Positions 1,060-10,049 of a stretch of DNA of 10,614 bases are shown here, in pieces. Below the pieces are notes generated by a model that was not told where the DNA came from, made no database searches, and worked only from the letters and a program-made list of their open reading frames with translations. Position 1 is the first letter of the stretch. Each line of letters starts with the position of its first letter. Source of the DNA: a virus. Lineage: Duplodnaviria > Heunggongvirae > Uroviricota > Caudoviricetes. The DNA is taken from positions 1-10,614 of the IMG/VR virus record IMGVR_UViG_2740892019_000005; one strand, given 5' to 3'. A program made the position numbers and the translations under genes.

Positions 1060-1260
1060 TCATTCCACGGACAAAAACAGAGAAAGGAAACAACAAAGGC
1101 CAAAAAGCCCGTTTTCAGCATCTGTCGTTTCCTTTCTTTTCAGGGGGTGTTTTAAATAAAAACATTAAGTTACGGCGAAGAAGAACGGAAACGCCTTAAA
1201 CCGGAAAATTTTCATAAATAGCGAAAACCCGCGCGCCTTCCGCCCCGTAGCCTGCCGGAT
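1060..1260. other. cos site: cosB-like segment (Nu1 R-sites and IHF region) and cosN-equivalent near 1234-1245
   Basis: Minus-strand sequence ...CGCGGGTTTTCGCTATTTATGAAAATTTTCCGGTTTAAGGCGTTTCCGTTCTTCTTCG...GAAAGGAAACGACAG... is nearly identical to the lambda left-end cosB region as I recall it. The aligned cosN 12-mer reads GGGCGGAAGGCG rather than lambda GGGCGGCGACCT. Confidence 0.7.
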
Positions 1261-1327
1261 CGCCGGAAAGGACCCGCAGGCGTTCTAGTTTATTCGCAAT
1301 GAATTCAATGTCTGACAGACCTGCGTC

Positions 1328-1345
1328 GTGCGACCACGGTCGCAC
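1328..1345. repeat. 18-bp perfect palindrome GTGCGACC-AC-GGTCGCAC, copy 1 of 4
   Basis: Exact 18-mer also at 2995-3012 and 3215-3232, and as the reverse-centre form (GT centre) at 6250-6267. The 8-bp arms are perfect reverse complements. Confidence 0.85.
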
Positions 1346-1370
1346 AGCAATGAATCAACATCCTGCATGC

Positions 1371-1438
1371 TCGCGCAGAGGAGTTCCCCGTCGGACTACG
1401 GTCATGGTTAATGCGGGAATACAGCGACGATACAGCGC
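1371..1438 (+). repeat. 68-bp direct repeat, copy 1 (second copy at 3137-3204)
   Basis: tcgcgcagaggagttccccgtcggActacggtcatGgttaatgcgggaatacAgcgacgatAcagcgc versus copy 2, with only 4 transition differences (capitals). Confidence 0.85.
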
Positions 1439-1554
1439 ATGATGTGTCAGGCTTGAATACCTTTATCCGTTAAAAGGGATATCAGTTAAGTTATCCCGTG
1501 CAGGGTATAAGCCATTATCAAAGCCACTCAGTAGCGAATGGCTTTTGTAATGGA

Positions 1555-2004
1555 CTATTTAATTAGTGATGCTGCGTATTCGATTAGATATAACTTAGGT
1601 GCCAGCCAAATTTTTAACCATGTCATATTGGCTACTACAGAAATAATAAAACTGAACCATAGAATAAAAACTGCTACTAATGGTAAGACAAAACCACTTA
1701 ACCTACCGTCACTTTCCCAAATCATAGTCGGTTTGTATTTAGGCTGTCCATTATCCCATGAGCGTCCTTCATTATCGAACTTACCAATTTCAACTTTTTT
1801 GCACTGTTTCTTCATAAACCAAATAACCAGCGGGATTGTTGAAATAGCTATTAATGTTTTAATCAGGCTATCAACCATATTCCATACCAGCAACTGATGA
1901 ACAACATCCGGAATCTGAGCCTGACTGAATGCAATGGCGGAATCAATTCCATCGCTGGCCTTCTTCAATAAATCAACAAGAATTTTATTTGCTTCTTCTT
2001 GCAT
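1555..2004 (-). CDS. Hypothetical small membrane protein (149 aa, about 2 predicted transmembrane segments); cargo gene
   Basis: ORF-track protein with hydrophobic stretches LIKTLIAISTIPLVIWF and GFVLPLVAVFILWFSFIISVVANMTWL separated by a charged loop. Region is visibly AT-rich. No lambda counterpart at this position. Confidence 0.6.
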   Translation of the reverse strand: MQEEANKILVDLLKKASDGIDSAIAFSQAQIPDVVHQLLVWNMVDSLIKTLIAISTIPLVIWFMKKQCKKVEIGKFDNEGRSWDNGQPKYKPTMIWESDGRLSGFVLPLVAVFILWFSFIISVVANMTWLKIWLAPKLYLIEYAASLIK

Positions 2005-2128
2005 GTTTATATCCTGTAAGTTGTAAGCCTGTTCGAAAAAAAATAAACAACTACGAGAGACAGAAAAAATATCTCAGGCTCTCTTTCTATAAGCTTTTAG
2101 TTGAGGATGTTCTGCAAAACAAAACTGG

Positions 2129-2971
2129 TTAGTTATGTAACTGCTTCCGGAATACAACAGCCGACGTGCTACAACGTAAAATTCGTTTGATTGTGGCCGT
2201 TGAGGAAACAGACTTGCATTTCTCAACATCATCAATGATGACCACATCCAGTACAGGTATGGCGCGGGTATGCAATGTTTTTGCACTAATAACATCACAA
2301 CCATTCAGCGGTCGAATATCTGAATCTTCAGGCACTACCAGAAGCACACGTTTTCCCGGTGCAGAAAAGCCAGCAGCAAGAGTTCGTGACAATAAAGTCA
2401 TTCCACTACGTGGCTTCATACAAATTTCAGAAATATGATTTTTTTCGTCAAAATGATGCTGGCCATCATTTTTATCATTACTCAACAACTCTGCTGTTAA
2501 TACAATCCCTGCTGTCTCAGATTTCCAGGAAATGCTGATATCCTGATCATCTGCATCAACATCATATTTCATCGAGTAAGGACTAAAGCAACGTCCAACG
2601 AACGCATCATTTACCAGTACACGCCCACCCTGTCTGACCTGAAAGTCAACGCGCCCTAAAAGCTGATTTGCTGTTACAAGCAATGCCTTTTTTCTTTTTG
2701 TTTTATTGCTCATTGCCACAAATTGTTCTGCCATCTCTCTTGTTACATCACCAGCAATTCTTTCCAGCAGTTTTACATTAACATTCTCCGTAAAATATCT
2801 GGATGACATCAGGCAGTTATTAACAATTGGCATCAGCTCACTTACGATTGTAAAAAATTCCCGGTAAAGCTCATTTTGCTTTTCAACACACAGTTCTCCA
2901 CAATCGTCCAGCTTACGCTCAAGAGCACTTAATCTTTCCATTATTGAATTAATTTTTTGCAACTCTTTCAT
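2129..2971 (-). CDS. Hypothetical protein (280 aa), no recognisable family; cargo gene upstream of the membrane protein
   Basis: Start ATG at 2969-2971 is preceded by AGGAGG (tctttgtcAGGAGGttttgATG). The ORF-track ORF extends to 3232 but that extension crosses a palindrome and a repeat and has no RBS. N-terminus looks helical/coiled-coil (MKELQKINSIMERLSALERKLDD...). Confidence 0.65.
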   Translation of the reverse strand: MKELQKINSIMERLSALERKLDDCGELCVEKQNELYREFFTIVSELMPIVNNCLMSSRYFTENVNVKLLERIAGDVTREMAEQFVAMSNKTKRKKALLVTANQLLGRVDFQVRQGGRVLVNDAFVGRCFSPYSMKYDVDADDQDISISWKSETAGIVLTAELLSNDKNDGQHHFDEKNHISEICMKPRSGMTLLSRTLAAGFSAPGKRVLLVVPEDSDIRPLNGCDVISAKTLHTRAIPVLDVVIIDDVEKCKSVSSTATIKRILRCSTSAVVFRKQLHN

Positions 2972-2994
2972 CAAAACCTCCTGACAAAGATACC

Positions 2995-3012
2995 GTGCGA
3001 CCACGGTCGCAC
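2995..3012. repeat. 18-bp palindrome GTGCGACCACGGTCGCAC, copy 2; 23 bp upstream of the 280-aa gene start
   Basis: Exact repeat of the 1328-1345 sequence. Confidence 0.85.
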
Positions 3013-3136
3013 GCTCCTGAATACATGCCCTGTTTCTTCCACCCTCGCACAGGACTGGCGAGCATGAGGGACAAACCCGCGAATCAATAGCGCGGTAAAA
3101 ACCCGGTGTGCATCGTTTTTGATTATTTCCGCACAC

Positions 3137-3204
3137 TCGCGCAGAGGAGTTCCCCGTCGGGCTACGGTCATAGTTAATGCGGGAATACGGCGACGATGCA
3201 GCGC
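3137..3204 (+). repeat. 68-bp direct repeat, copy 2
   Basis: About 94% identical to 1371-1438. The flanking upstream sequence (about 3030-3136) also resembles a lambda segment near bor that I recall, but this is unverified. Confidence 0.85.
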
Positions 3205-3214
3205 GGAATTTAGC

Positions 3215-3232
3215 GTGCGACCACGGTCGCAC
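3215..3232. repeat. 18-bp palindrome GTGCGACCACGGTCGCAC, copy 3
   Basis: Exact repeat, 10 bp after direct-repeat copy 2. Confidence 0.85.
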
Positions 3233-3251
3233 ACGAGAAACAAAGAGATTT

Positions 3252-3563
3252 TTATGCTACAGAGGAACAAGCTGGCGGGTAATTCAGCGTAGTGAATACC
3301 GGCATCTCCATCTTGTATGCGTAATGATACTCAGCAGTTGCTCCAGCAGACGCTTTCCAGCCAGGAAGCATCAAAATAGCATCAGCAGAACGAAGCATTG
3401 CAAAGCAAATATCCATGTATTAACGTTGCGTCAGGCCATTGGGTAAAGTGGCTGGATTCAGGACCGAATGACCATGACGTGACAAACGCTCAGCCTCTTT
3501 ATTAAAGGCGTCACGATTAAAATTCTCATATCCCGTCATTGGTCCGGCAATATAAATTTTCAT
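3252..3563 (-). pseudogene. DUF4406-like / nucleoside 2-deoxyribosyltransferase-like small protein interrupted by an in-frame TAA (codon 48)
   Basis: Minus-strand frame from ATG 3561-3563 reads MKIYIAGPMTGYENFNRDAFNKEAERLSRHGHSVLNPATLPNGLTQR-stop(3420-3422)-YMDICFAMLRSADAILMLPGWKASAGATAEYHYAYKMEMPVFTTLNYPPACSSVA-stop. One continuous frame with a single internal stop. The MKIYIAGPMTG start is characteristic of the family as I recall it. Confidence 0.55.
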
Positions 3564-3604: not shown

Positions 3605-4066
3605 TTAATTCAGGCATTGCGTCCTGATGTACTCCTGCAAATATCCAACCTGTTTCGTCACTGTGACGATTCGCTCTCTGAGGATGAAATAATCCCGTTC
3701 AGCGGAGTCAGTAAGTCGGGGGCCGGTAGCATCGCCCAGGCCGCCGGTGATGGTCGTTCCGTTCGCGGGACATCTGGCGTTGAGGTGCAGCCCACACTTG
3801 CCAGTGCGAACACAACGCTGCAAATCATCAAGCTGCTTTTTGGCATCAGCTAAGTCCTTCGTGTATTTGGCATCCAGAGCCGCTACATCACGCTGGCGGA
3901 TCTGCATGTCTTTGATGGTAGCGTTCGCCAGCTTCAACTCTCTGGCGTTTTTGTCGCGCTGCTCTTTATAGGAGATGGCGTTATCACGGTAATGATTAAC
4001 AGCCAACGACAGGCAGACGATGATGCAGATAACCAGTGTGGAGATAATCGCGGTGACTCTGCTCAT
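3605..4066 (-). CDS. Rz: Spanin inner-membrane subunit Rz (i-spanin)
   Basis: N-terminal TM segment ([20 protein letters not shown]) followed by a coiled-coil periplasmic domain, similar to lambda Rz. Start ATG 4064-4066 overlaps the R stop (TAATG). Chosen over the upstream ATG at 4078. Confidence 0.85.
3658..3846 (-). CDS. Rz1: Spanin outer-membrane lipoprotein Rz1 (o-spanin), embedded in the +1 frame of Rz
   Basis: Signal peptide ending in lipobox-like ...ALASVGC-TS, proline-rich body, and C-terminal TPLNGIIS motif as in lambda Rz1. Lies entirely within Rz. Confidence 0.75.
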
Positions 4067-4563
4067 TACTGCCCCCACAAACAGACTTCACGCTCAATCT
4101 CACGGCGAGTCATCAGCCCTTTCCATTGCTTACCGCCAGCATATGTCCAGCGACGTAGTTGATCACATGCACCTTTGATATCGCCCTGGTTGATTTTGCG
4201 AAGAAGCGTCGATGTTCTGAAATTGCCTGCACCCACGTTGTAAACGAACGAGTAAAGAGCACCACGCGTTGTTTCCGGTATATCGACTTTGATGTACGGG
4301 TTAATTTGTCTGGCGACAGTAGCAAGGTCTTTATTCAGGAGAGCTTTGCATTCTGCTTCGGTATACGTTTTACCGAGCATAATGTCTTTTCCTGTATGCC
4401 CGTAACATACAGTCCATACACCAACGATGTCTTTGTAGGGGTTATGTTTCACACCTTCCAGACCATCGTTGCCGCTCGGACCAGAGATGAGCACAGATGC
4501 TATGGCAATAGCCCCGCCACCAATAGCAGTTGCGACAGCTTTGCGTAATGATGACTGCATCAT
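4066..4563 (-). CDS. R: SAR endolysin (phage 21 R-type lysozyme)
   Basis: [38 protein letters not shown]... has a Gly/Ala-rich N-terminal signal-anchor-release segment followed by a T4-lysozyme-like catalytic domain. Close to the phage 21 R sequence as I recall it. Confidence 0.9.
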
Positions 4564-4832
4564 ATTTCCTTCGGTGCTCTCTTTCCCAATTCACCAATAA
4601 CCATCGCCGTGGCGGAAATATTATTGGCATCAGTTTTATCCAATATGTCCTGCAATATCTTCGTGCGCTTCATCTGCTCGCGTTTATTGAGCCGGTATGT
4701 AAGTACACCGAGGATAATGCTGAACGCGACACCGATAATGAAGCCCCAATCCTGCAATGACAGGCTGGCAAAGAACGCAGTAAGACCAGCACTACCATAA
4801 GGTGCGCTGCTGTATCGTTCATCCATCTTCAT
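4560..4832 (-). CDS. S: Holin, probable pinholin (class II, 2 TMDs) with dual-start motif MKM
   Basis: 90 aa with two adjacent hydrophobic segments ([11 protein letters not shown] and [18 protein letters not shown]) and a charged C-terminus. Stop overlaps the R start (ATGA). Preceded by GAGGT. Confidence 0.75.
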
Positions 4833-4928: not shown

Positions 4929-6050
4929 TTACTCAAATAACTTTTTCACTTCATCAACTGTCTGAAGATAACGTTCACCCTCAATCTCAATACCGATTGC
5001 CTGACGACCTAACTTCAGCGCGGCTTTAATAGTAGAGCCTGATCCCATAAAGAAATCGGCAACGATATCTCCGGGGCGTGAACTACTTTTTATAATATGT
5101 TCCATCATCGCTGCAGGTTTTTCACATGGGTGCTTGCCAGGATAATATTGCACAGGAGGAAACTCCCATACATCGGTATAAGGTACATCAGCAGTAACAT
5201 GAAATGGGCGGCGCAAATTTTCATACTGAGCCTTCAAATCATCATACTGCTTCTTTACTTCCTCATAATGCAATTTCAGATCGCTATAACGCTTTTCATG
5301 TTCTGAATAATCAACATTAAAAGGATATGGACACGGGACACCGAGTGAATCTGCCTTCCTGCGAAATAATTCGCATAGTTTATTAAAATCAATTAATGAT
5401 GGAAGCCGCCACTGCGAATAAGAAAACCAGTGCGAACACATCTGCTTTCCTGTCGCTGAATTAATGTCTGCGGCTGATATATCTAACTGACGGCGAGCCA
5501 GCGAAAAAGCATCAATTAGTGGAGAAAAAATATTTTTTCTTAGATCTGCACATTTTGAAGCATAACCTGACTGACCTTTAGCATAACCTGACGCGCCGTA
5601 ATGCTCTGCAAATAATATTCTTTCAGTAGCAGGAAAATAAGCCCTTAAACTTTCTTTATGACAACCGCGCCACATACCACTGGGTTTAGCCCAAATGATA
5701 TGGTTCAGAACATTGAAACGGTCGCGAGTTAATAATTCAATTTTTGACGCAAGGCGAGAGCCGGTAAACATATACAGGCTGCCATTAGGGGCCAATATCC
5801 GCCAAAATTCTGCCAAAAATTCGTCAATCCACCCCAAAAAGTCAGCATCGCTATCCCACTGGTTATCCCATGCGTTAGCCTTTACGCCGAAGTATGGTGG
5901 GTCTGTTGCAATCAAATTGACCGAGTTATCAGGGATGGTTTTGATAAATTGCAGAGAATCTGCGCAAACGAGTTGTGCGCCATGAATATTAGTGGTTTTG
6001 AACATAGCTATTATTTTTTTGCCTGGGTAAGCTAACCCGGCGATGCGCAT
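4929..6050 (-). CDS. DNA methyltransferase, beta-class (motif IV DPPY precedes motif I FxGxG), probably N6-adenine; YhdJ-like architecture
   Basis: N-terminal ...VNLIATDPPYFG... and C-terminal ...GDIVADFFMGSGSTIKAALKLGRQAIGIEIE... Alternative start at 6003-6005 (MFKTTNIHG...); neither start has a strong SD. AT-rich relative to the flanking lysis genes. Confidence 0.85.
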   Translation of the reverse strand: MRIAGLAYPGKKIIAMFKTTNIHGAQLVCADSLQFIKTIPDNSVNLIATDPPYFGVKANAWDNQWDSDADFLGWIDEFLAEFWRILAPNGSLYMFTGSRLASKIELLTRDRFNVLNHIIWAKPSGMWRGCHKESLRAYFPATERILFAEHYGASGYAKGQSGYASKCADLRKNIFSPLIDAFSLARRQLDISAADINSATGKQMCSHWFSYSQWRLPSLIDFNKLCELFRRKADSLGVPCPYPFNVDYSEHEKRYSDLKLHYEEVKKQYDDLKAQYENLRRPFHVTADVPYTDVWEFPPVQYYPGKHPCEKPAAMMEHIIKSSSRPGDIVADFFMGSGSTIKAALKLGRQAIGIEIEGERYLQTVDEVKKLFE

Positions 6051-6249: not shown

Positions 6250-6267
6250 GTGCGACCGTGGTCGCAC
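6250..6267. repeat. 18-bp palindrome, copy 4 (GT-centre orientation; extended perfect palindrome CTGTGCGACCGTGGTCGCACAG at 6248-6269)
   Basis: Centre at about -63 relative to the inferred transcription start of the late promoter. On the plus strand it is followed by TTTTT. Confidence 0.85.
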
Positions 6268-6735: not shown

Positions 6736-6825
6736 AATATCCTCCAAATTCATATAGTTAGTAGGTTATTGCCCCTCAATGACACGAACTGTAACTCTGC
6801 CAAACGAACACATCCAGTGTTATTT

Positions 6826-6841
6826 TTCACTTTTTAGTGAA
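6826..6841. promoter_or_regulatory. Inverted repeat TTCACT-TTTT-AGTGAA in the toxin-antitoxin promoter region; candidate antitoxin operator
   Basis: Perfect 6-bp arms about 60 bp upstream of the toxin start, followed by GGAGG RBS. Confidence 0.4.
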
Positions 6842-6900
6842 ATTTTTAATTTGCGCTGTTTTCTCGTTTTGGTGTATTTTATGGGTATGGAGGCTATAAT

Positions 6901-7212
6901 ATGTTTAACGTGATAACCCACCCTGCAGCACTGGATGAACTGCTTGAACTACCAGATGATTTGCGAGGTCGCATGACCAGATTAATTGAGCGACTGGAGA
7001 AAGAAGGCAACAAACTGAAGATGCCTCATAGCCGTGTAATAGGTGGAGGGCTTTTTGAACTACGAGTAGGGGATAAAAACATCGCAAGAACGCTGTACGC
7101 CTACGCGACTGGTAACGAAATTTATCTATTGCATGCATTTGTAAAAAAGACACAGAAAACACCGGTGAAGGCTATCGAAATCGCCAGAACTCGCCTGAAG
7201 GAGATGAACTGA
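6901..7212 (+). CDS. Type II toxin, RelE/ParE superfamily, HigB-like (phage Gp49-like)
   Basis: 103 aa; ...GGGLFELRVGDKNIARTLYAYATGNEIYLLHAFVKKTQKTPVKAIEIARTRLKEM matches the conserved C-terminal signature of Gp49/HigB-like toxins as I recall it. GGAGG RBS. Stop overlaps the antitoxin start (ATGA). Confidence 0.8.
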   Translation: MFNVITHPAALDELLELPDDLRGRMTRLIERLEKEGNKLKMPHSRVIGGGLFELRVGDKNIARTLYAYATGNEIYLLHAFVKKTQKTPVKAIEIARTRLKEMN

Positions 7213-7499
7213 TGAAAGCGAAAGGCATCCCGTTTAACGAAGTAAAAGAAAAACTCCTCAACACTCCAGAAGCCGTCAAAGGATATGAAGAGGCCGACAA
7301 AGAGCTGGAGATGGTAGAAATGTTATACGAAATGAGGGAAAGAGCAGGTTTAACGAAATCAGCTCTGGCTGAACGAATGGGGTTGCGCCCGTCAGCCATC
7401 AGCCGCCTGGAAAGCAATCCTTTAGGGGCAAGTATGAAAACTTTGGCTAAATATGCTCATGCCTGCGGCGCAACCATCGATATTCGCGCTGTTTATTAA
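7212..7499 (+). CDS. Type II antitoxin, XRE-family HTH (HigA-like)
   Basis: 95 aa with HTH ...LTKSALAERMGLRPSAISRLESN...; translationally coupled downstream of the toxin (toxin-first order typical of HigBA). Confidence 0.8.
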   Translation: MKAKGIPFNEVKEKLLNTPEAVKGYEEADKELEMVEMLYEMRERAGLTKSALAERMGLRPSAISRLESNPLGASMKTLAKYAHACGATIDIRAVY

Positions 7500-8430: not shown

Positions 8431-8844
8431 TTACTTAACCCAATTAACTACACCGCCAGCGGCCACAACCGCCCTTTCACAGTCACGCTCATATCTCAAA
8501 GGTTGAAATACACCATCAATAAAATATTTATCTCCACCAAACGCTGCAGGAAGTGAAACAGAAAACTGAATACGATTATCATCCGGCACCACCGGCAGTG
8601 GCTGGGCTACATATAATGACTGAACATACCAGCCCTTTGATAACCAACTGTCAGCAATGTTTTTACTCCGGGTTATTGCCGGAATACCTAAGCCATTGTC
8701 TGAATGCAGCCATGCCACCGGTTCTGCTTCCAGCGAGGCTAACGCTATTTCATAAGCCCGGCGCTCAATATTGTCTCTCACGTCCAGGCTGCCTATGCGC
8801 TCTTTGATTTCTTTAATCAGTTCTTTGTCGGTAAAAGTGCTCAT
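8431..8844 (-). CDS. Hypothetical phage protein (138 aa), paralog of the next gene
   Basis: RBS AAGGAGA upstream of the ATG at 8842-8844 (the ORF track extends 7 codons further without an RBS). Shares the motif ASLEAEPVAW with the 150-aa neighbour. Confidence 0.65.
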   Translation of the reverse strand: MSTFTDKELIKEIKERIGSLDVRDNIERRAYEIALASLEAEPVAWLHSDNGLGIPAITRSKNIADSWLSKGWYVQSLYVAQPLPVVPDDNRIQFSVSLPAAFGGDKYFIDGVFQPLRYERDCERAVVAAGGVVNWVK

Positions 8845-8845
8845 A

Positions 8846-9295
8846 TCAATCTCCTTTGGTACCAATGTTTACAGCCTGGCAAGCCTCTTTGAGCACCCAG
8901 TCAACAGCGTCTTTCCATGCTCCGGTTTCGACTGGCGGATTTTCACGCTTAACCTGTTCATAGAAGCGCACTGCTTTAATCAATCCTTCTGGTGTCAGTG
9001 GCACAGGCGGGGCAGTGAATAACGCCTGAATTTCATAGTTCGGTCTGTCGTTGCAACCCTCTTTTGTCGGTACATATTTCCAGTCACCAACCCACGGCTC
9101 CCCCTGTGAGTCCGTAATGCCTTTTTTCACGTAGCGATATCGCCACGCCATCGGTTCTGCTTCCAGCGATGCCTGTGCGATACGAAACACATTGGCAAGC
9201 AGGCTGTCTGAGGATTGGTTATCGTGCGCCGGGTCGCTCAGGAAGCCATTGATGAATGATTTAATCTTCGAGTTTTCTCTGGTAATAGTGGTCAT
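8846..9295 (-). CDS. Hypothetical phage protein (150 aa), paralog of the previous gene
   Basis: RBS AAGGAGAG upstream of the ATG at 9293-9295. The ORF-track N-terminal extension to 9553 overlaps the upstream gene and is rejected. Motif ASLEAEPMAW. Confidence 0.65.
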   Translation of the reverse strand: MTTITRENSKIKSFINGFLSDPAHDNQSSDSLLANVFRIAQASLEAEPMAWRYRYVKKGITDSQGEPWVGDWKYVPTKEGCNDRPNYEIQALFTAPPVPLTPEGLIKAVRFYEQVKRENPPVETGAWKDAVDWVLKEACQAVNIGTKGD

Positions 9296-9296
9296 A

Positions 9297-10049
9297 TCAC
9301 TCTCCTTTGCGAATCTCTGCGGCAAAGTCAGTCGCATGCTCACCGAGTAGTTTCCAGTTATCGCGTATATCAGATGCAAGCGACTGTTCGGATTTTGAGT
9401 TACATTTCTGTGCAAACATTTCCACCCCCTGCGCCCGCACTTCAGACAGGAAAGAGTCGGTGGCTGGGGTTTCGACATTAGGTCGAAGCTCATAATCACA
9501 AACTCTTTCAATCCATGGTGATACTCTGTCGCATTTCCTCTTCTTGCGTTCACCGACCTTGGTTGCCTGCTGAATAATTACCCCCCAGCAAATGCTTTCG
9601 ACCTCTTCGCTCCATCCATCGCAAGCATCGCCTCTATAGTCGTCAATTGCAGCCTCAGCAGCAGCGATAGCCTCCTCAGCAGTTTTGTGACACTCGAAAC
9701 TAAATTCAGAGCCATATGAGAAATACATAGCCCCGGCCTTCAGCGCCGCATTCTCCGCCGCCAGAGCCGCGCAACTGGCCTCCAGCTCTGCAATGCGTTT
9801 GCTTTGAGCCTCTCGTTCATCCAGCAGTGCCTGCACTACTTCAGGGTTGAAAGCTGCGATATAATGAGCGTTGTTCTCTGCGTTTTTCTGTCCGTCAAAG
9901 CCGGTCCATTTGATAACGTCTTCACATCGTTTATCACCGGGCGTATGCACTGCATACGTACCAGTACCCGGCGAAATAAATGCGACCCATTCACCCTGTG
10001 TTGCCTGTTTTGCTATCTCACGCAGTACCTGATAATTGATTTCACTCAC
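9297..10049 (-). CDS. Hypothetical phage protein (250 aa) with central Ala-rich coiled-coil; possibly Ea22-like
   Basis: GTG start at 10047-10049 is preceded by AGGAGG and overlaps the upstream gene stop (GTGA). Contains ELEASCAALAAENAALKAG. The Ea22-like call is a recollection, not verified. Confidence 0.55.
   Translation of the reverse strand: MSEINYQVLREIAKQATQGEWVAFISPGTGTYAVHTPGDKRCEDVIKWTGFDGQKNAENNAHYIAAFNPEVVQALLDEREAQSKRIAELEASCAALAAENAALKAGAMYFSYGSEFSFECHKTAEEAIAAAEAAIDDYRGDACDGWSEEVESICWGVIIQQATKVGERKKRKCDRVSPWIERVCDYELRPNVETPATDSFLSEVRAQGVEMFAQKCNSKSEQSLASDIRDNWKLLGEHATDFAAEIRKGE

Follow-up and report, generated by a model that had tools for sequence, protein, structure and literature searches.

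Stacking of accessory gene slots as the probable source of a duplicated lambdoid linker in an N15-like phage-plasmid

We found that the two direct repeats bracketing a pair of small accessory (cargo) genes in a 10,614-nt stretch of phage DNA, referred to here as the window, belong to a longer non-coding segment that is widespread in Escherichia coli, and that each copy is preceded by a palindrome identical to the core of centromere sites in the phage-plasmid N15. The two 68-bp repeats appear to be two alleles of one linker in the moron region, from Rz to cos, of E. coli lambdoid phages, which in this N15-like lineage is joined to a predicted N15-type SopB centromere palindrome (IR). The two-copy state was probably created by inter-phage recombination, which stacked two accessory slots and thereby duplicated the conserved linker. 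A duplicated linker around cargo genes is ordinary phage mosaicism.

Genome context and cargo genes

The window represents the right arm of a linear, N15-like phage-plasmid whose cos and terminase are of the lambda type. Its nearest complete relative, pAH01-1, shares 94-99% identity with it and encodes sopA, a SopB protein 73% identical to N15 SopB, a protelomerase and repA; sopA and sopB lie outside the 10.6-kb window and were seen in this relative. YDC107_1, which carries a two-copy allele of the locus, is classified as Ravinvirus. The features of the locus are listed in Table 1.

Table 1. Features of the repeat locus and its surroundings in the window
Feature	Position (nt)	Strand	Description
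IR1	1328-1345	.	N15-type predicted SopB-binding palindrome GTGCGACCACGGTCGCAC; between cos flank and repeat copy 1
Probable left-end segment remnant	1346-1370	+	AGCAATGAATCAACATCCTG..., cf. GCTCCTGAATACATGCCCTG after IR2; moderately supported
Repeat copy 1	1371-1438	+	3' part (part C) of conserved segment; allelic type ...ACAGCGACGATACAGCGCATGA
ext flank	1439-1554	+	Conserved; between segment and 3' end of following minus-strand accessory gene
Cargo gene B	1555-2004	-	149-aa membrane protein, PHROG 3054
Cargo gene A	2129-2971	-	280-aa orphan protein, PHROG 2571; SD AGGAGG at 2978-2983
IR2	2995-3012	.	Predicted SopB palindrome; heads repeat unit 2
Segment, left and central parts	3013-3136	+	Hairpin-prone part A, hypervariable part B, near-invariant core ~3100-3139; from alignments and entropy profile
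Repeat copy 2	3137-3204	+	Part C of full segment; allelic type ...ACGGCGACGATGCAGCGCGG
IR3	3215-3232	.	Predicted SopB palindrome; between segment and DUF4406 gene; slot of N15 IR4
DUF4406 gene	3252-3563	-	Homolog of N15 gene 57; interrupted by in-frame stop; Rz-proximal neighbour of unit
Fourth palindrome	6250-6267	.	Predicted SopB site; between gp51-like gene and methyltransferase; positional equivalent of N15 IR3

Both cargo genes carry the PHROGs label 'unknown function'. In P22-like prophages, homologs of gene B with 70-72% identity are found on their own beside sieB. Those of gene A form 15 clusters, all from E. coli, and an exhaustive HMMER search returned one full-length 50% cluster among 1.84 billion, making this gene essentially an orphan. 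Searches of Pfam, PADLOC, NCBIfam and PDB were negative for both cargo proteins, gene A having no match in any of the four, and revealed no known defence domain; the single-sequence AlphaFold model of gene A was unusable (pLDDT 38.8). The DUF4406 gene, interrupted in the window, is intact in pAH01-1 and in the loci L166 and L278.

Extent of the repeated unit

A sequence-only reading of the window had described 68-bp direct repeats on either side of the cargo, and the pair is real: the copies are identical at 64/68 positions (94%), have the same orientation and enclose both cargo ORFs, and the four differences are all transitions, each A<->G on the plus strand. The distance between the copies is 1766 bp, and the repeat search returned a 74-nt match with 92% identity (1365-1438 versus 3131-3204). 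A chance origin is excluded, since 0.25^64 is vanishingly small against ~1e8 position pairs. That reading had also pointed to a similar, single-copy sequence upstream of bor in lambda, and this proved correct: one copy is present, at positions 46869-46974 of NC_001416, with 84% identity to window positions 3099-3204, placed between a ybcV-like ORF and bor and ending ~115 nt upstream of the bor ATG.

The extent of the repeat, however, had been underestimated. The 68 bp are only the right-hand part of a longer segment (3013/3029-3204), and the 18-bp palindrome preceding each copy, together with a third one beyond copy 2, had been overlooked; the true duplicated unit is the IR plus the whole segment, not the 68 bp alone. 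This unit is ~211 bp long in pAH01-1 and is internally shortened in copy 1 of the window, where about 99-110 nt of the segment are missing at the probable left-end remnant, which is identical at 14/20 positions to the segment start of L053. At the same place pAH01-1 has a complete IR+segment unit (L161 30695-30905), ~95% identical to window positions 2994-3204. The longest perfectly identical run between the two window copies is ~25 nt.

N15-type palindromes

The 18-bp perfect palindrome GTGCGACCACGGTCGCAC is present at four exact sites in the window (Table 1), with 0 expected by chance. It is identical to the IR1/IR4 cores of N15, and the published N15 IR1-IR4 oligonucleotides match (oligo table, PMC7205306). 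The sites are perfect 16-18-bp palindromes with the N15 half-site GTGCGACC / GGTCGCAC, and exactly four such palindromic sites exist in the N15 genome. This identity to the IR1/IR4 core suggests that the palindromes are N15-type SopB centromere sites. The sites at 1328, 2995 and 3215 are in the lysis-cos interval, like N15 IR4, and that at 6250 comes after the gp51-like gene, like N15 IR3. On the minus strand, 12 nt separate IR2 from the gene A SD, which lies downstream of it. In the record of N15 itself, IR4 is labelled as a putative terminator, a point of relevance to annotation, and the IRs offer a handle for finding the accessory slots of phage-plasmids.

Distribution and structure of the linker segment

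The segment is ~176-190 nt long and non-coding, and occupies 3013-3204 in the window, with the BLAST-conserved portion beginning at 3029; the near-invariant core in the entropy profile measures 40 nt, and the repeat is the 3' third of the whole. Matches were found in 424 phage records and in 3087 of the 5426 complete E. coli genomes (57%), the copy number being nearly always one and the site being the Rz/bor-cos interval. Lambda, 434 and 933W each have one copy, located upstream of bor. Among species-representative genomes, a scan located the segment only in Escherichia, and matches in other genera were rejected as contamination with lambda control DNA. Two copies were present in only four of ~160 sampled loci, and all four have the same cargo.

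The neighbours of the segment are variable, with at least six kinds on the right (two bor types, two ext+moron types, IR-DUF4406 and others) and several kinds on the left, where the Rz-proximal side varies among phages. The ext flank, which contains a hairpin (AAGCCA-12 nt-TGGCTT) at 1521-1544, follows the segment beside different cargo in L096, L057, L088, L114, 3W and D2. The ORF annotated across the segment in 3W and D2 is not conserved, and the candidate coding sequence was rejected; most segment variants hit a stop by about codon 9-12 and 1-nt indels separate the types, and these frame-breaking indels and early stops exclude a conserved ORF. A literature search turned up no account of the segment or of a bor-upstream RNA. 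To our knowledge, which is not exhaustive, the segment had not been described before as a boundary or linker block.

Allele series and recombination

The sequence-only reading had suggested that the repeat may be a conserved linker at which accessory genes are gained and lost by homologous recombination, and the empty, filled and two-copy alleles of the relatives support this. Alignment with lambda and other lambdoid genomes revealed a widespread homologous segment with varying neighbours, and a comparison of prophages with and without cargo showed the empty alleles to be single-copy, most clearly in the plasmid pZ1323HEC0355-3. Specifically, a complete 211-bp IR+segment unit flanks the cargo on both sides in pAH01-1; in L166 and L164 the cargo is accompanied by a single segment and a single IR, the homology of L166 to the window switching within the IR; L127 has the cos flank, IR and segment followed by a different moron, with breakpoints that also fall in the IR; and the empty allele, segment-IR-DUF4406, was found in six genomes, including pZ1323HEC0355-3. 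The breakpoint with both L166 and L127 is located at IR2, and a homology breakpoint of L127 falls within IR1.

The diagnostic sites of copy 1 (...ACAGCGACGATACAGCGCATGA) are common to many other phages, and copy 2 is of the DUF4406-linked type. In-situ tandem duplication was rejected on these grounds, the differing ancestry of the two window copies arguing against it. The single segment of pZ1323HEC0355-3 resembles YDC107_1 copy 1 on the left and copy 2 on the right, and the segment of 933W is chimeric, being the same as EH1965 at 114/114 positions on the left and as lambda at 70/70 on the right. A four-gamete test gave an Rm of at least 12 among 61 unique segment sequences. The segment is a shared non-coding block with unrelated neighbours, internal crossovers and alleles of gain and loss. 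The sequences compared show directly what each part is, that every allele type exists, that breakpoints fall at the IR and that crossovers took place inside the segment.

The two-copy state may have arisen by recombination between genomes with differently filled Rz-cos slots. A single reciprocal crossover, either unequal or of the Campbell type, in the shared IR/segment homology would stack two slots and give the product IR-segment-[ext-geneB-geneA]-IR-segment-IR-DUF4406. The direct repeat would then be a by-product of module stacking, which the cargo would not need but which could supply homology for later loss or exchange of the cargo. We infer the direction and the order of the events, as well as the enzyme, which may be RecA or a phage recombinase. 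The hypothetical recipient allele that the simplest unequal IR x IR crossover would require, cos flank-IR-segment-IR-DUF4406, was absent from the complete E. coli genomes. Against this explanation, insertion and deletion look alike, so that empty and filled alleles give no direction, and the decay of the cargo in YDC107_1 and L163 occurred by illegitimate deletion and was not repeat-mediated. About 25 nt of perfect identity is near the lower limit for RecA-dependent recombination. The near-invariant 40-nt core, together with a small number of compensatory changes in a long inverted repeat, is a hint of less than purely neutral evolution in the segment.

Alternative explanations

A duplicated regulatory or structured-RNA element had been proposed as another reading of the repeat, and for the 68 nt alone it was not supported, there being no Rfam match, no fold signal and no promoter-like site. 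In a wider form, the segment including the repeat would be a cis-regulatory or structured RNA, serving as a leader or insulator for plus-strand bor-type lysogenic-conversion genes or as a processing or stability element of late transcripts, with each copy serving the adjacent gene; we regard this as quite improbable. RNAalifold analysis of the 61 unique sequences did predict a long imperfect inverted repeat, TATT(C/T)CCGC...GCGG(G/A)AATA plus CATCG...CGATG, at ~3107-3205, in which 98.1% of cells were paired versus 95.9% in shuffles and 34 cells were changed on both sides versus 10.8 (a value reached by 0/500 shuffles); in addition, the 40-nt core is near invariant, and part B forms a hairpin in five unrelated sequence versions. 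The covariation check on the full segment was divided, with compensatory changes in four pairs (e.g. CG 52 / GC 8) but a pair count not significantly above that in shuffles (4 versus 2.6; 50/500 shuffles), each covariation being traceable to roughly one lineage and the covariation term being just -0.4 kcal/mol. Moreover, the 68-nt repeat does not include the 5' arm of the hairpin, which copy 1 of the window has in altered form or not at all, the repeat alone folds no better than shuffled sequence (z of -0.05 and 0.57; consensus fold of 0 to -2.5 kcal/mol), and the full segment on the plus strand has a fold z of only -1.07. When the whole window was scanned against Rfam 15 by E-value, no match fell in 1200-3300, the two weak matches elsewhere both being under the gathering score, and no sigma-70-like promoter or terminator was found in 3013-3204; IR2 alone scores as terminator-like, with a poor T-run. 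The annotation of MG1655 has no RNA at the homologous DLP12 site, and conservation of the segment between lambda and 434 (83%) falls short of that of bor (93.5%) and Rz (98%) on its flanks. A deletion of 9-10 nt (10 alignment columns) falls within part C, where the repeat lies, in the EH1965-type variant, and the cargo functions in one-copy genomes. For a self-contained structured RNA, promoter or coding sequence in the linker, no support was found.

The IRs, rather than the 68-nt repeat, could be the functional elements, either as recombination joints for cassettes like [segment-ext-B-A-IR] or as sites multiplied under selection, for a stronger partition complex or for SopB-dependent control of late or cargo genes, with the repeat riding along. 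Several observations fit this account, which we nevertheless consider unlikely: the homology breakpoints of the window with L166 and L127 fall inside an 18-22-bp IR, in at least five different contexts an IR directly adjoins the segment's left end, the ~28-nt IR-bearing insert is missing from 3W, which shares the cos flank and segment, the window lineage has three IRs within 1.9 kb versus one in N15, and the title of a published paper attributes to the N15 Sop system a facilitating role in late gene expression (cited in PMC11652158). However, homologous recombination would have very little to work with in 18 bp, the locus has no linked site-specific recombinase, and an IR on both sides is not required, since the left copy in the two-copy alleles YDC107_1 and L165 and the left side of the empty allele L278 are without one. 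Also, 2 mismatches make IR3 degenerate in pAH01-1, evidence against strong selection on all three of the sites, and the IRs are present in the chromosomally integrated prophages L163 and L166, where partition is irrelevant. It is highly doubtful that the SopB palindromes act as portable junction elements exchanging cassettes between phage-plasmids and integrated lambdoid prophages, or that the three-site cluster places the cargo in a SopB-nucleated domain and so couples cargo or late-gene expression to the partition machinery. That the repeats are the ends or footprint of a cargo-carrying mobile element (a transposon or MITE target duplication, or an integron-like cassette) is scarcely tenable, even though direct repeats and identical palindromes bracket the cargo and the arrangement IR-202 nt-IR at 2995-3232 looks at first sight like a small element with terminal inverted repeats. 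Domains of a transposase, integrase or recombinase are missing from the unit and its neighbourhood, the repeats, at 68-211 bp and 92-95% identity, are much longer and more diverged than a target-site duplication would be, a single copy pre-exists in thousands of genomes without the cargo, and the cargo is also found with just one copy; a transposon, MITE or target-site duplication is thus largely refuted.

Significance and comparison with known systems

Read as stacked slots, the locus is a sequence-level example of accessory gene shuffling among lambdoid phages and N15-like phage-plasmids, in which a ~180-nt linker present in over half of the complete E. coli genomes constitutes the shared homology and empty, filled and stacked alleles are found in public genomes. 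The predicted centromere sites travel with modules, sit at mosaic breakpoints and have reached chromosomal prophages, and their presence at cargo junctions is the new detail.

Among the dispersed SopB sites IR1-IR4 of N15, the IR1 and IR4 cores have exactly the 18-bp sequence of the window, and the intergenic slots of IR3 (after gene 51) and IR4 (lysis-cos interval) are matched. N15, however, has one site in the Rz-cos interval, as opposed to the cluster of three in the window, and is without the lambdoid linker segment, which the window IRs abut; unlike the described N15 sites, those of the window coincide with mosaic breakpoints, and the same IR, unlike in the N15 setting, also occurs in the integrated prophages L163 and L166. 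The N15 sites are relatives of the sopC repeat core of the F plasmid, TGGGACCACGGTCCCA, which differs from GTGCGACCACGGTCGCAC at one position per half-site, as described (PMC2910045).

The segment is homologous to the intergenic sequence preceding bor in lambda (~46.8-47.0 kb) and borD in K-12 DLP12, with 84% identity over 106 nt by BLAST and ~170 nt alignable, and the orientation relative to Rz and cos in lambda is as in the window. Lambda has a single copy, no IR and bor next to it, whereas the window has no bor and the neighbours are DUF4406 and the cargo. The annotations of lambda, 434 and MG1655 give no function for the segment.

A slot between conserved flanks holding alternative small cargo genes is shared with the P2/P4 antiviral hotspots (PMC9122126), but the locus is another one, the Rz-cos interval in lambdoid and N15-like phages, and its cargo showed no known defence domain. 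The closest parallel in concept comes from the theory of modular evolution, in which short conserved 'boundary' or linker sequences were proposed to mediate module exchange among lambdoid phages (PMC3029335). Recombination at such sequences is long established, and our finding refines this picture without overturning it. The window block and the lambdoid boundary sequences have in common a conserved non-coding junction with alternative genes on one side and internal crossovers, and a difference of one repeat unit between the empty and the filled alleles. The window block differs in its length (~176-190 nt) and in its extremely wide distribution (57% of complete E. coli genomes) and, unlike the boundary sequences described, it is found in a duplicated intermediate state in which both copies are kept.

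Genomic context

As its relatives show, the window is the right arm of a linear phage-plasmid of the N15 type, with a lambda-type cos and terminase. Its top phage match, YDC107_1 (97.5% identity), is classified in Ravinvirus, the genus of N15, and its top complete-genome match, the 46.9-kb plasmid pAH01-1 (94-99% identity), carries genes for protelomerase, sopA, SopB (73% identity to N15 SopB) and a repA-type replication protein, together with both cargo genes. The strand as read is antiparallel to late transcription.

Features of the window
Feature	Position	Strand	Remark
Nu1	511-1056	-
IR1	1328-1345		palindrome
Repeat copy 1	1371-1438
ext	1439-1554		conserved flank
Gene B (cargo)	1555-2004	-	149 aa, membrane, PHROG 3054
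Gene A (cargo)	2129-2971	-	280 aa, PHROG 2571, function category 'unknown'
IR2	2995-3012		palindrome
Core	~3100-3139		40 nt, near-invariant
Repeat copy 2	3137-3204		part C of the segment
IR3	3215-3232		palindrome
DUF4406 gene	3252-3563	-	ORFs 3420-3563 and 3252-3416
Rz	3605-4078	-
Endolysin	4066-4563	-
Holin	4560-4832	-
DNA methyltransferase	4929-6050	-
gp46-51/pmgU-like genes	beyond methyltransferase
Fourth palindrome	6250-6267
RyhB-like match	6778-6849	+
Toxin (RelE/ParE-family) and HTH antitoxin genes	6901-7499	+
Direct repeats, pair 1	8709-8739 / 9142-9172		pmgU-like region
Direct repeats, pair 2	8830-8858 / 9281-9309		pmgU-like region

Several further features were observed. The toxin and antitoxin genes lie on the strand opposite to the neighbouring late-region genes (as do genes 49/48 of N15), and the weak RyhB-like Rfam match (26 bits, where the gathering score is 55; E 0.21) amounts to little more than a terminator-like hairpin 5' of the toxin gene, probably a chance match. 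The two pairs of direct repeats in the pmgU-like region (29-31 nt, 90% identity, spacing about 440 bp) suggest that genes there are tandem paralogs. The DUF4406 gene, which is homologous to N15 gene 57, is broken by an in-frame stop; each of the two resulting ORFs matches one half of PF14359. In pAH01-1, L166 and L278 the gene is intact.

The repeat as part of a conserved linker

We confirmed the 68-bp direct repeat described in the sequence-only reading, with four differences between the copies, all A/G transitions on the plus strand, and with both copies in the same orientation on either side of the two minus-strand cargo ORFs. A repeat search gave 74 nt at 92% identity (1365-1438 versus 3131-3204), and a match of the repeat's length within 10.6 kb cannot be of chance origin. 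Alignment of both copies with lambda, 933W, 434, 3W, D2 and others revealed that a conserved non-coding segment ends in the repeat, which forms its right-hand third (part C); the segment is about 176 nt long by BLAST (3029-3204) or about 190 nt if measured from the palindrome (3013-3204). The leftmost part A is hairpin-prone, with a conserved loop, TTTCTTCCACC; it is followed by the hypervariable part B, five unrelated versions of which each form a hairpin, and by the core, AACCCGGTGTGCATCGTTTTTGATTAT(T/C)CCCGCACACTC, listed also as AACCCGGTGTGCATCGTTTTTGATTATTTCCGCACACTCG. The core, which was outside the sequence pattern used for retrieving the variants, had a column entropy of 0.13-0.25 and almost no variation across 61 unique variants, the flanking parts being variable. 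It adjoins the repeat from just outside and is missing in copy 1, in which about 20 nt resembling the segment start follow the palindrome, with a direct jump to part C. Since the copy left of the cargo in pAH01-1 is a full unit (L161 30695-30905, 95% identity to window 2994-3204) and both copies in YDC107_1 are about 150 nt or longer, window copy 1 looks like an internal-deletion derivative; the shortened form is present as a single copy elsewhere, for example in contig L103. A second conserved piece, ext, in many genomes joins the segment to the following minus-strand moron, whichever this is.

Of 50,697 phage records, 424 contained the segment, among them lambda, 434, 933W, VT2-Sakai and many Stx phages. 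Of 5426 complete E. coli genomes, 3087 had it, at 4601 places in total, of which 40 are plasmid-borne. When species were scanned with a single genome each, it was present only in Escherichia, contamination set aside; matches in Pseudomonas, Cohnella, Brevibacillus, Flavobacterium, Shewanella and others (L009-L039) were rejected as lambda control-DNA contamination because their segment was the lambda version and lay on contigs of about 3.5 or 48.5 kb. The segment always occupies the interval from the lysis genes to cos, often at 115-180 nt 5' of bor, and at least six unrelated sequences adjoin its Rz-proximal edge. The likeness to lambda noted in the sequence-only reading was verified as a single homolog (NC_001416 46869-46974, 84% identity to window 3099-3204) between a ybcV-like ORF and bor, ending about 115 nt 5' of the bor start codon.

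The repeat had also been proposed to be a regulatory or structured-RNA element, but neither reading was borne out. The 68-nt repeat is not a self-contained RNA: it matched no Rfam family, 81-nt copies folded on both strands no better than shuffled sequences (z -0.05, 0.57, 1.87 and 0.79), and the consensus fold of part C alone gave 0 to -2.5 kcal/mol. Nor did we detect a sigma-70-like promoter or terminator in 3013-3204, a conserved ORF in the segment across the aligned variants, or an annotated RNA at the homologous DLP12 position of MG1655. For the whole segment, RNAalifold predicted two hairpins, that of part A and a long imperfect one (about 3107-3205) founded on the inverted repeat TATTCCCGC / GCGGGAATA, the latter with its 5' arm outside the 68-nt repeat (total -13.4 kcal/mol, covariation term -0.4). 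Paired cells and doubly changed cells were each above every shuffle; compensatory change occurred in four pairs, each covariation coming from about one lineage, and this count was not above shuffles (4 versus 2.6; 50/500 shuffles). Lambda and 434 share 83% identity in the segment, below bor (93.5%) and Rz (98%). A regulatory role of the whole segment, above all of the invariant core, is possible but unsupported.

Centromere palindromes

The sequence-only reading, which was right about the repeat itself, had overlooked the 18-bp palindromes (IRs). We found GTGCGACCACGGTCGCAC at IR1, IR2 and IR3 and its GT-centred complement at the fourth site, with 0 expected by chance; N15 has exactly four such sites and pAH01-1 six in total. 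These palindromes may be identified as SopB centromere sites because the published N15 IR1-IR4 oligonucleotides share their cores, IR1 and IR4 being identical to the window sequence (PMC7205306), and because the positions correspond, the fourth site following a gp51-like gene, as N15 IR3 does, and the other three falling within the lysis-cos interval, the location of N15 IR4. The F SopB site core is TGGGACCACGGTCCCA (PMC3597684), and a single position in each half-site distinguishes N15 from F sites (PMC2910045). Each repeat copy would be headed by such a site, with a third separating copy 2 from the DUF4406 gene. The lambdoid segment is absent from N15, so that the association of IR and segment belongs to lambda/N15 hybrids. 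In the N15 record (L160 45560-45584), the IR4 site is labelled 'putative rho-independent transcription terminator'; the same palindrome in the window is open to the same mis-annotation, IR2 having been flagged by a terminator scan.

Alleles of the slot and their possible origin

Arrangements of the accessory slot between Rz and cos, in window orientation (cos to Rz)
Allele	Arrangement	Found in
Two copies and cargo	IR-segment-ext-B-A-IR-segment-IR-DUF4406	window, pAH01-1
Two copies, IR1 absent at left copy	otherwise same order	YDC107_1, L165
Cargo, one segment and one IR	ylcI-segment-ext-B-A-IR-DUF4406 (or HNH remnant)	L166, L164
Single IR and segment, other moron	cos flank-IR-segment-ext-other moron	L127, L053
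Same flank and segment, no IR	without ~28-nt IR-bearing insert	3W
Empty	cos-segment-IR-DUF4406	6 complete genomes

The suggestion that accessory genes are gained and lost at the linker by homologous recombination was supported by the presence of cargo-filled and empty alleles and of crossovers within the segment. For example, the 933W segment is identical to Stx2_EH1965 at the left 114 of 114 positions and to lambda at the right 70 of 70, the switch coinciding with the left-hand limit of the 68-nt repeat, and a four-gamete test (34 informative sites, 61 unique sequences) gave 190 incompatible pairs and at least 12 recombination events. A single-copy junction of the kind that a collapse would leave was found in plasmid pZ1323HEC0355-3, which has the empty allele, whose chimeric segment is of the YDC107_1 copy 1 type on the left and of the copy 2 type on the right (identical in type), and which would be exactly the product, or the substrate, of a single crossover between two copies. 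Two copies were present in only 4 of about 160 sampled loci, all four with this cargo. At least 80% of window 1200-3300 was present in 28 complete genomes, on ~46-kb plasmids and chromosomes alike, the outer limits of homology often being the outer edges of the two copies.

In-place duplication of the repeat was rejected, since the window copies are of different allelic types, suggesting that they came together from different genomes. Sequence comparison shows the identity of the parts, all allele classes, the IR breakpoints and the crossovers in the segment. The most economical account is module stacking through recombination at shared homology. Differently filled slots would have the segment in common, and in phage-plasmids also the IR, and one reciprocal crossover there, either unequal between two genomes or a Campbell-type insertion of a circular IR-segment-ext-B-A intermediate, would place two slots head to tail and leave the cargo flanked at either end by the linker. 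A subsequent crossover between the copies would remove the cargo and leave a chimeric single copy, as in pZ1323HEC0355-3. We infer the direction and order of these events and the recombination enzymes. The simplest IR x IR scheme requires a recipient 'IR-segment-IR-DUF4406', which was not found among complete E. coli genomes.

The main rival explanation assigns the active role to the IRs, which would serve as junction elements or form a centromere cluster under selection. In its favour, the IR is present in many contexts and breakpoints are located at it, the homology of L166 to the window jumping from 3012 to 3211 inside 22 nt containing the IR and that of L127 also breaking in the IR; against it, two-copy alleles exist without an IR at the left copy, and IR3 is degenerate in pAH01-1.

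Other slot alleles (L164 4697-4798; L165, H144-H147 and H158) have an HNH endonuclease remnant beside a degenerate IR, or IS5-family insertions in the cargo region, and show that the slot is still decaying and turning over. In YDC107_1, the cargo is partially deleted by an illegitimate event not involving the repeats.

Cargo genes

Gene A is essentially an orphan, with 15 clusters at 90% identity, in E. coli only, one full-length 50% cluster among 1.84 billion representatives, and no match in Pfam, PADLOC, NCBIfam or PDB. Gene B has 490 homolog clusters across the Enterobacteriaceae. Because homologs with 70-72% identity (L280-L287) occur without gene A, adjoining sieB just 3' of N in P22-like and lambdoid prophages, gene B may represent a prophage moron that stands on its own and possibly acts as an exclusion factor.

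Comparison with known systems

N15 is already known to have dispersed SopB sites. To explain lambdoid mosaicism, a classic proposal invokes exchange at short conserved boundary sequences (concept outlined in PMC3029335). New here are the identification of one particular, very widespread linker, its capture in duplicated form together with matching empty and filled alleles, and the apparent clustering of N15-type centromere sites at cargo junctions and their spread into chromosomal prophages.
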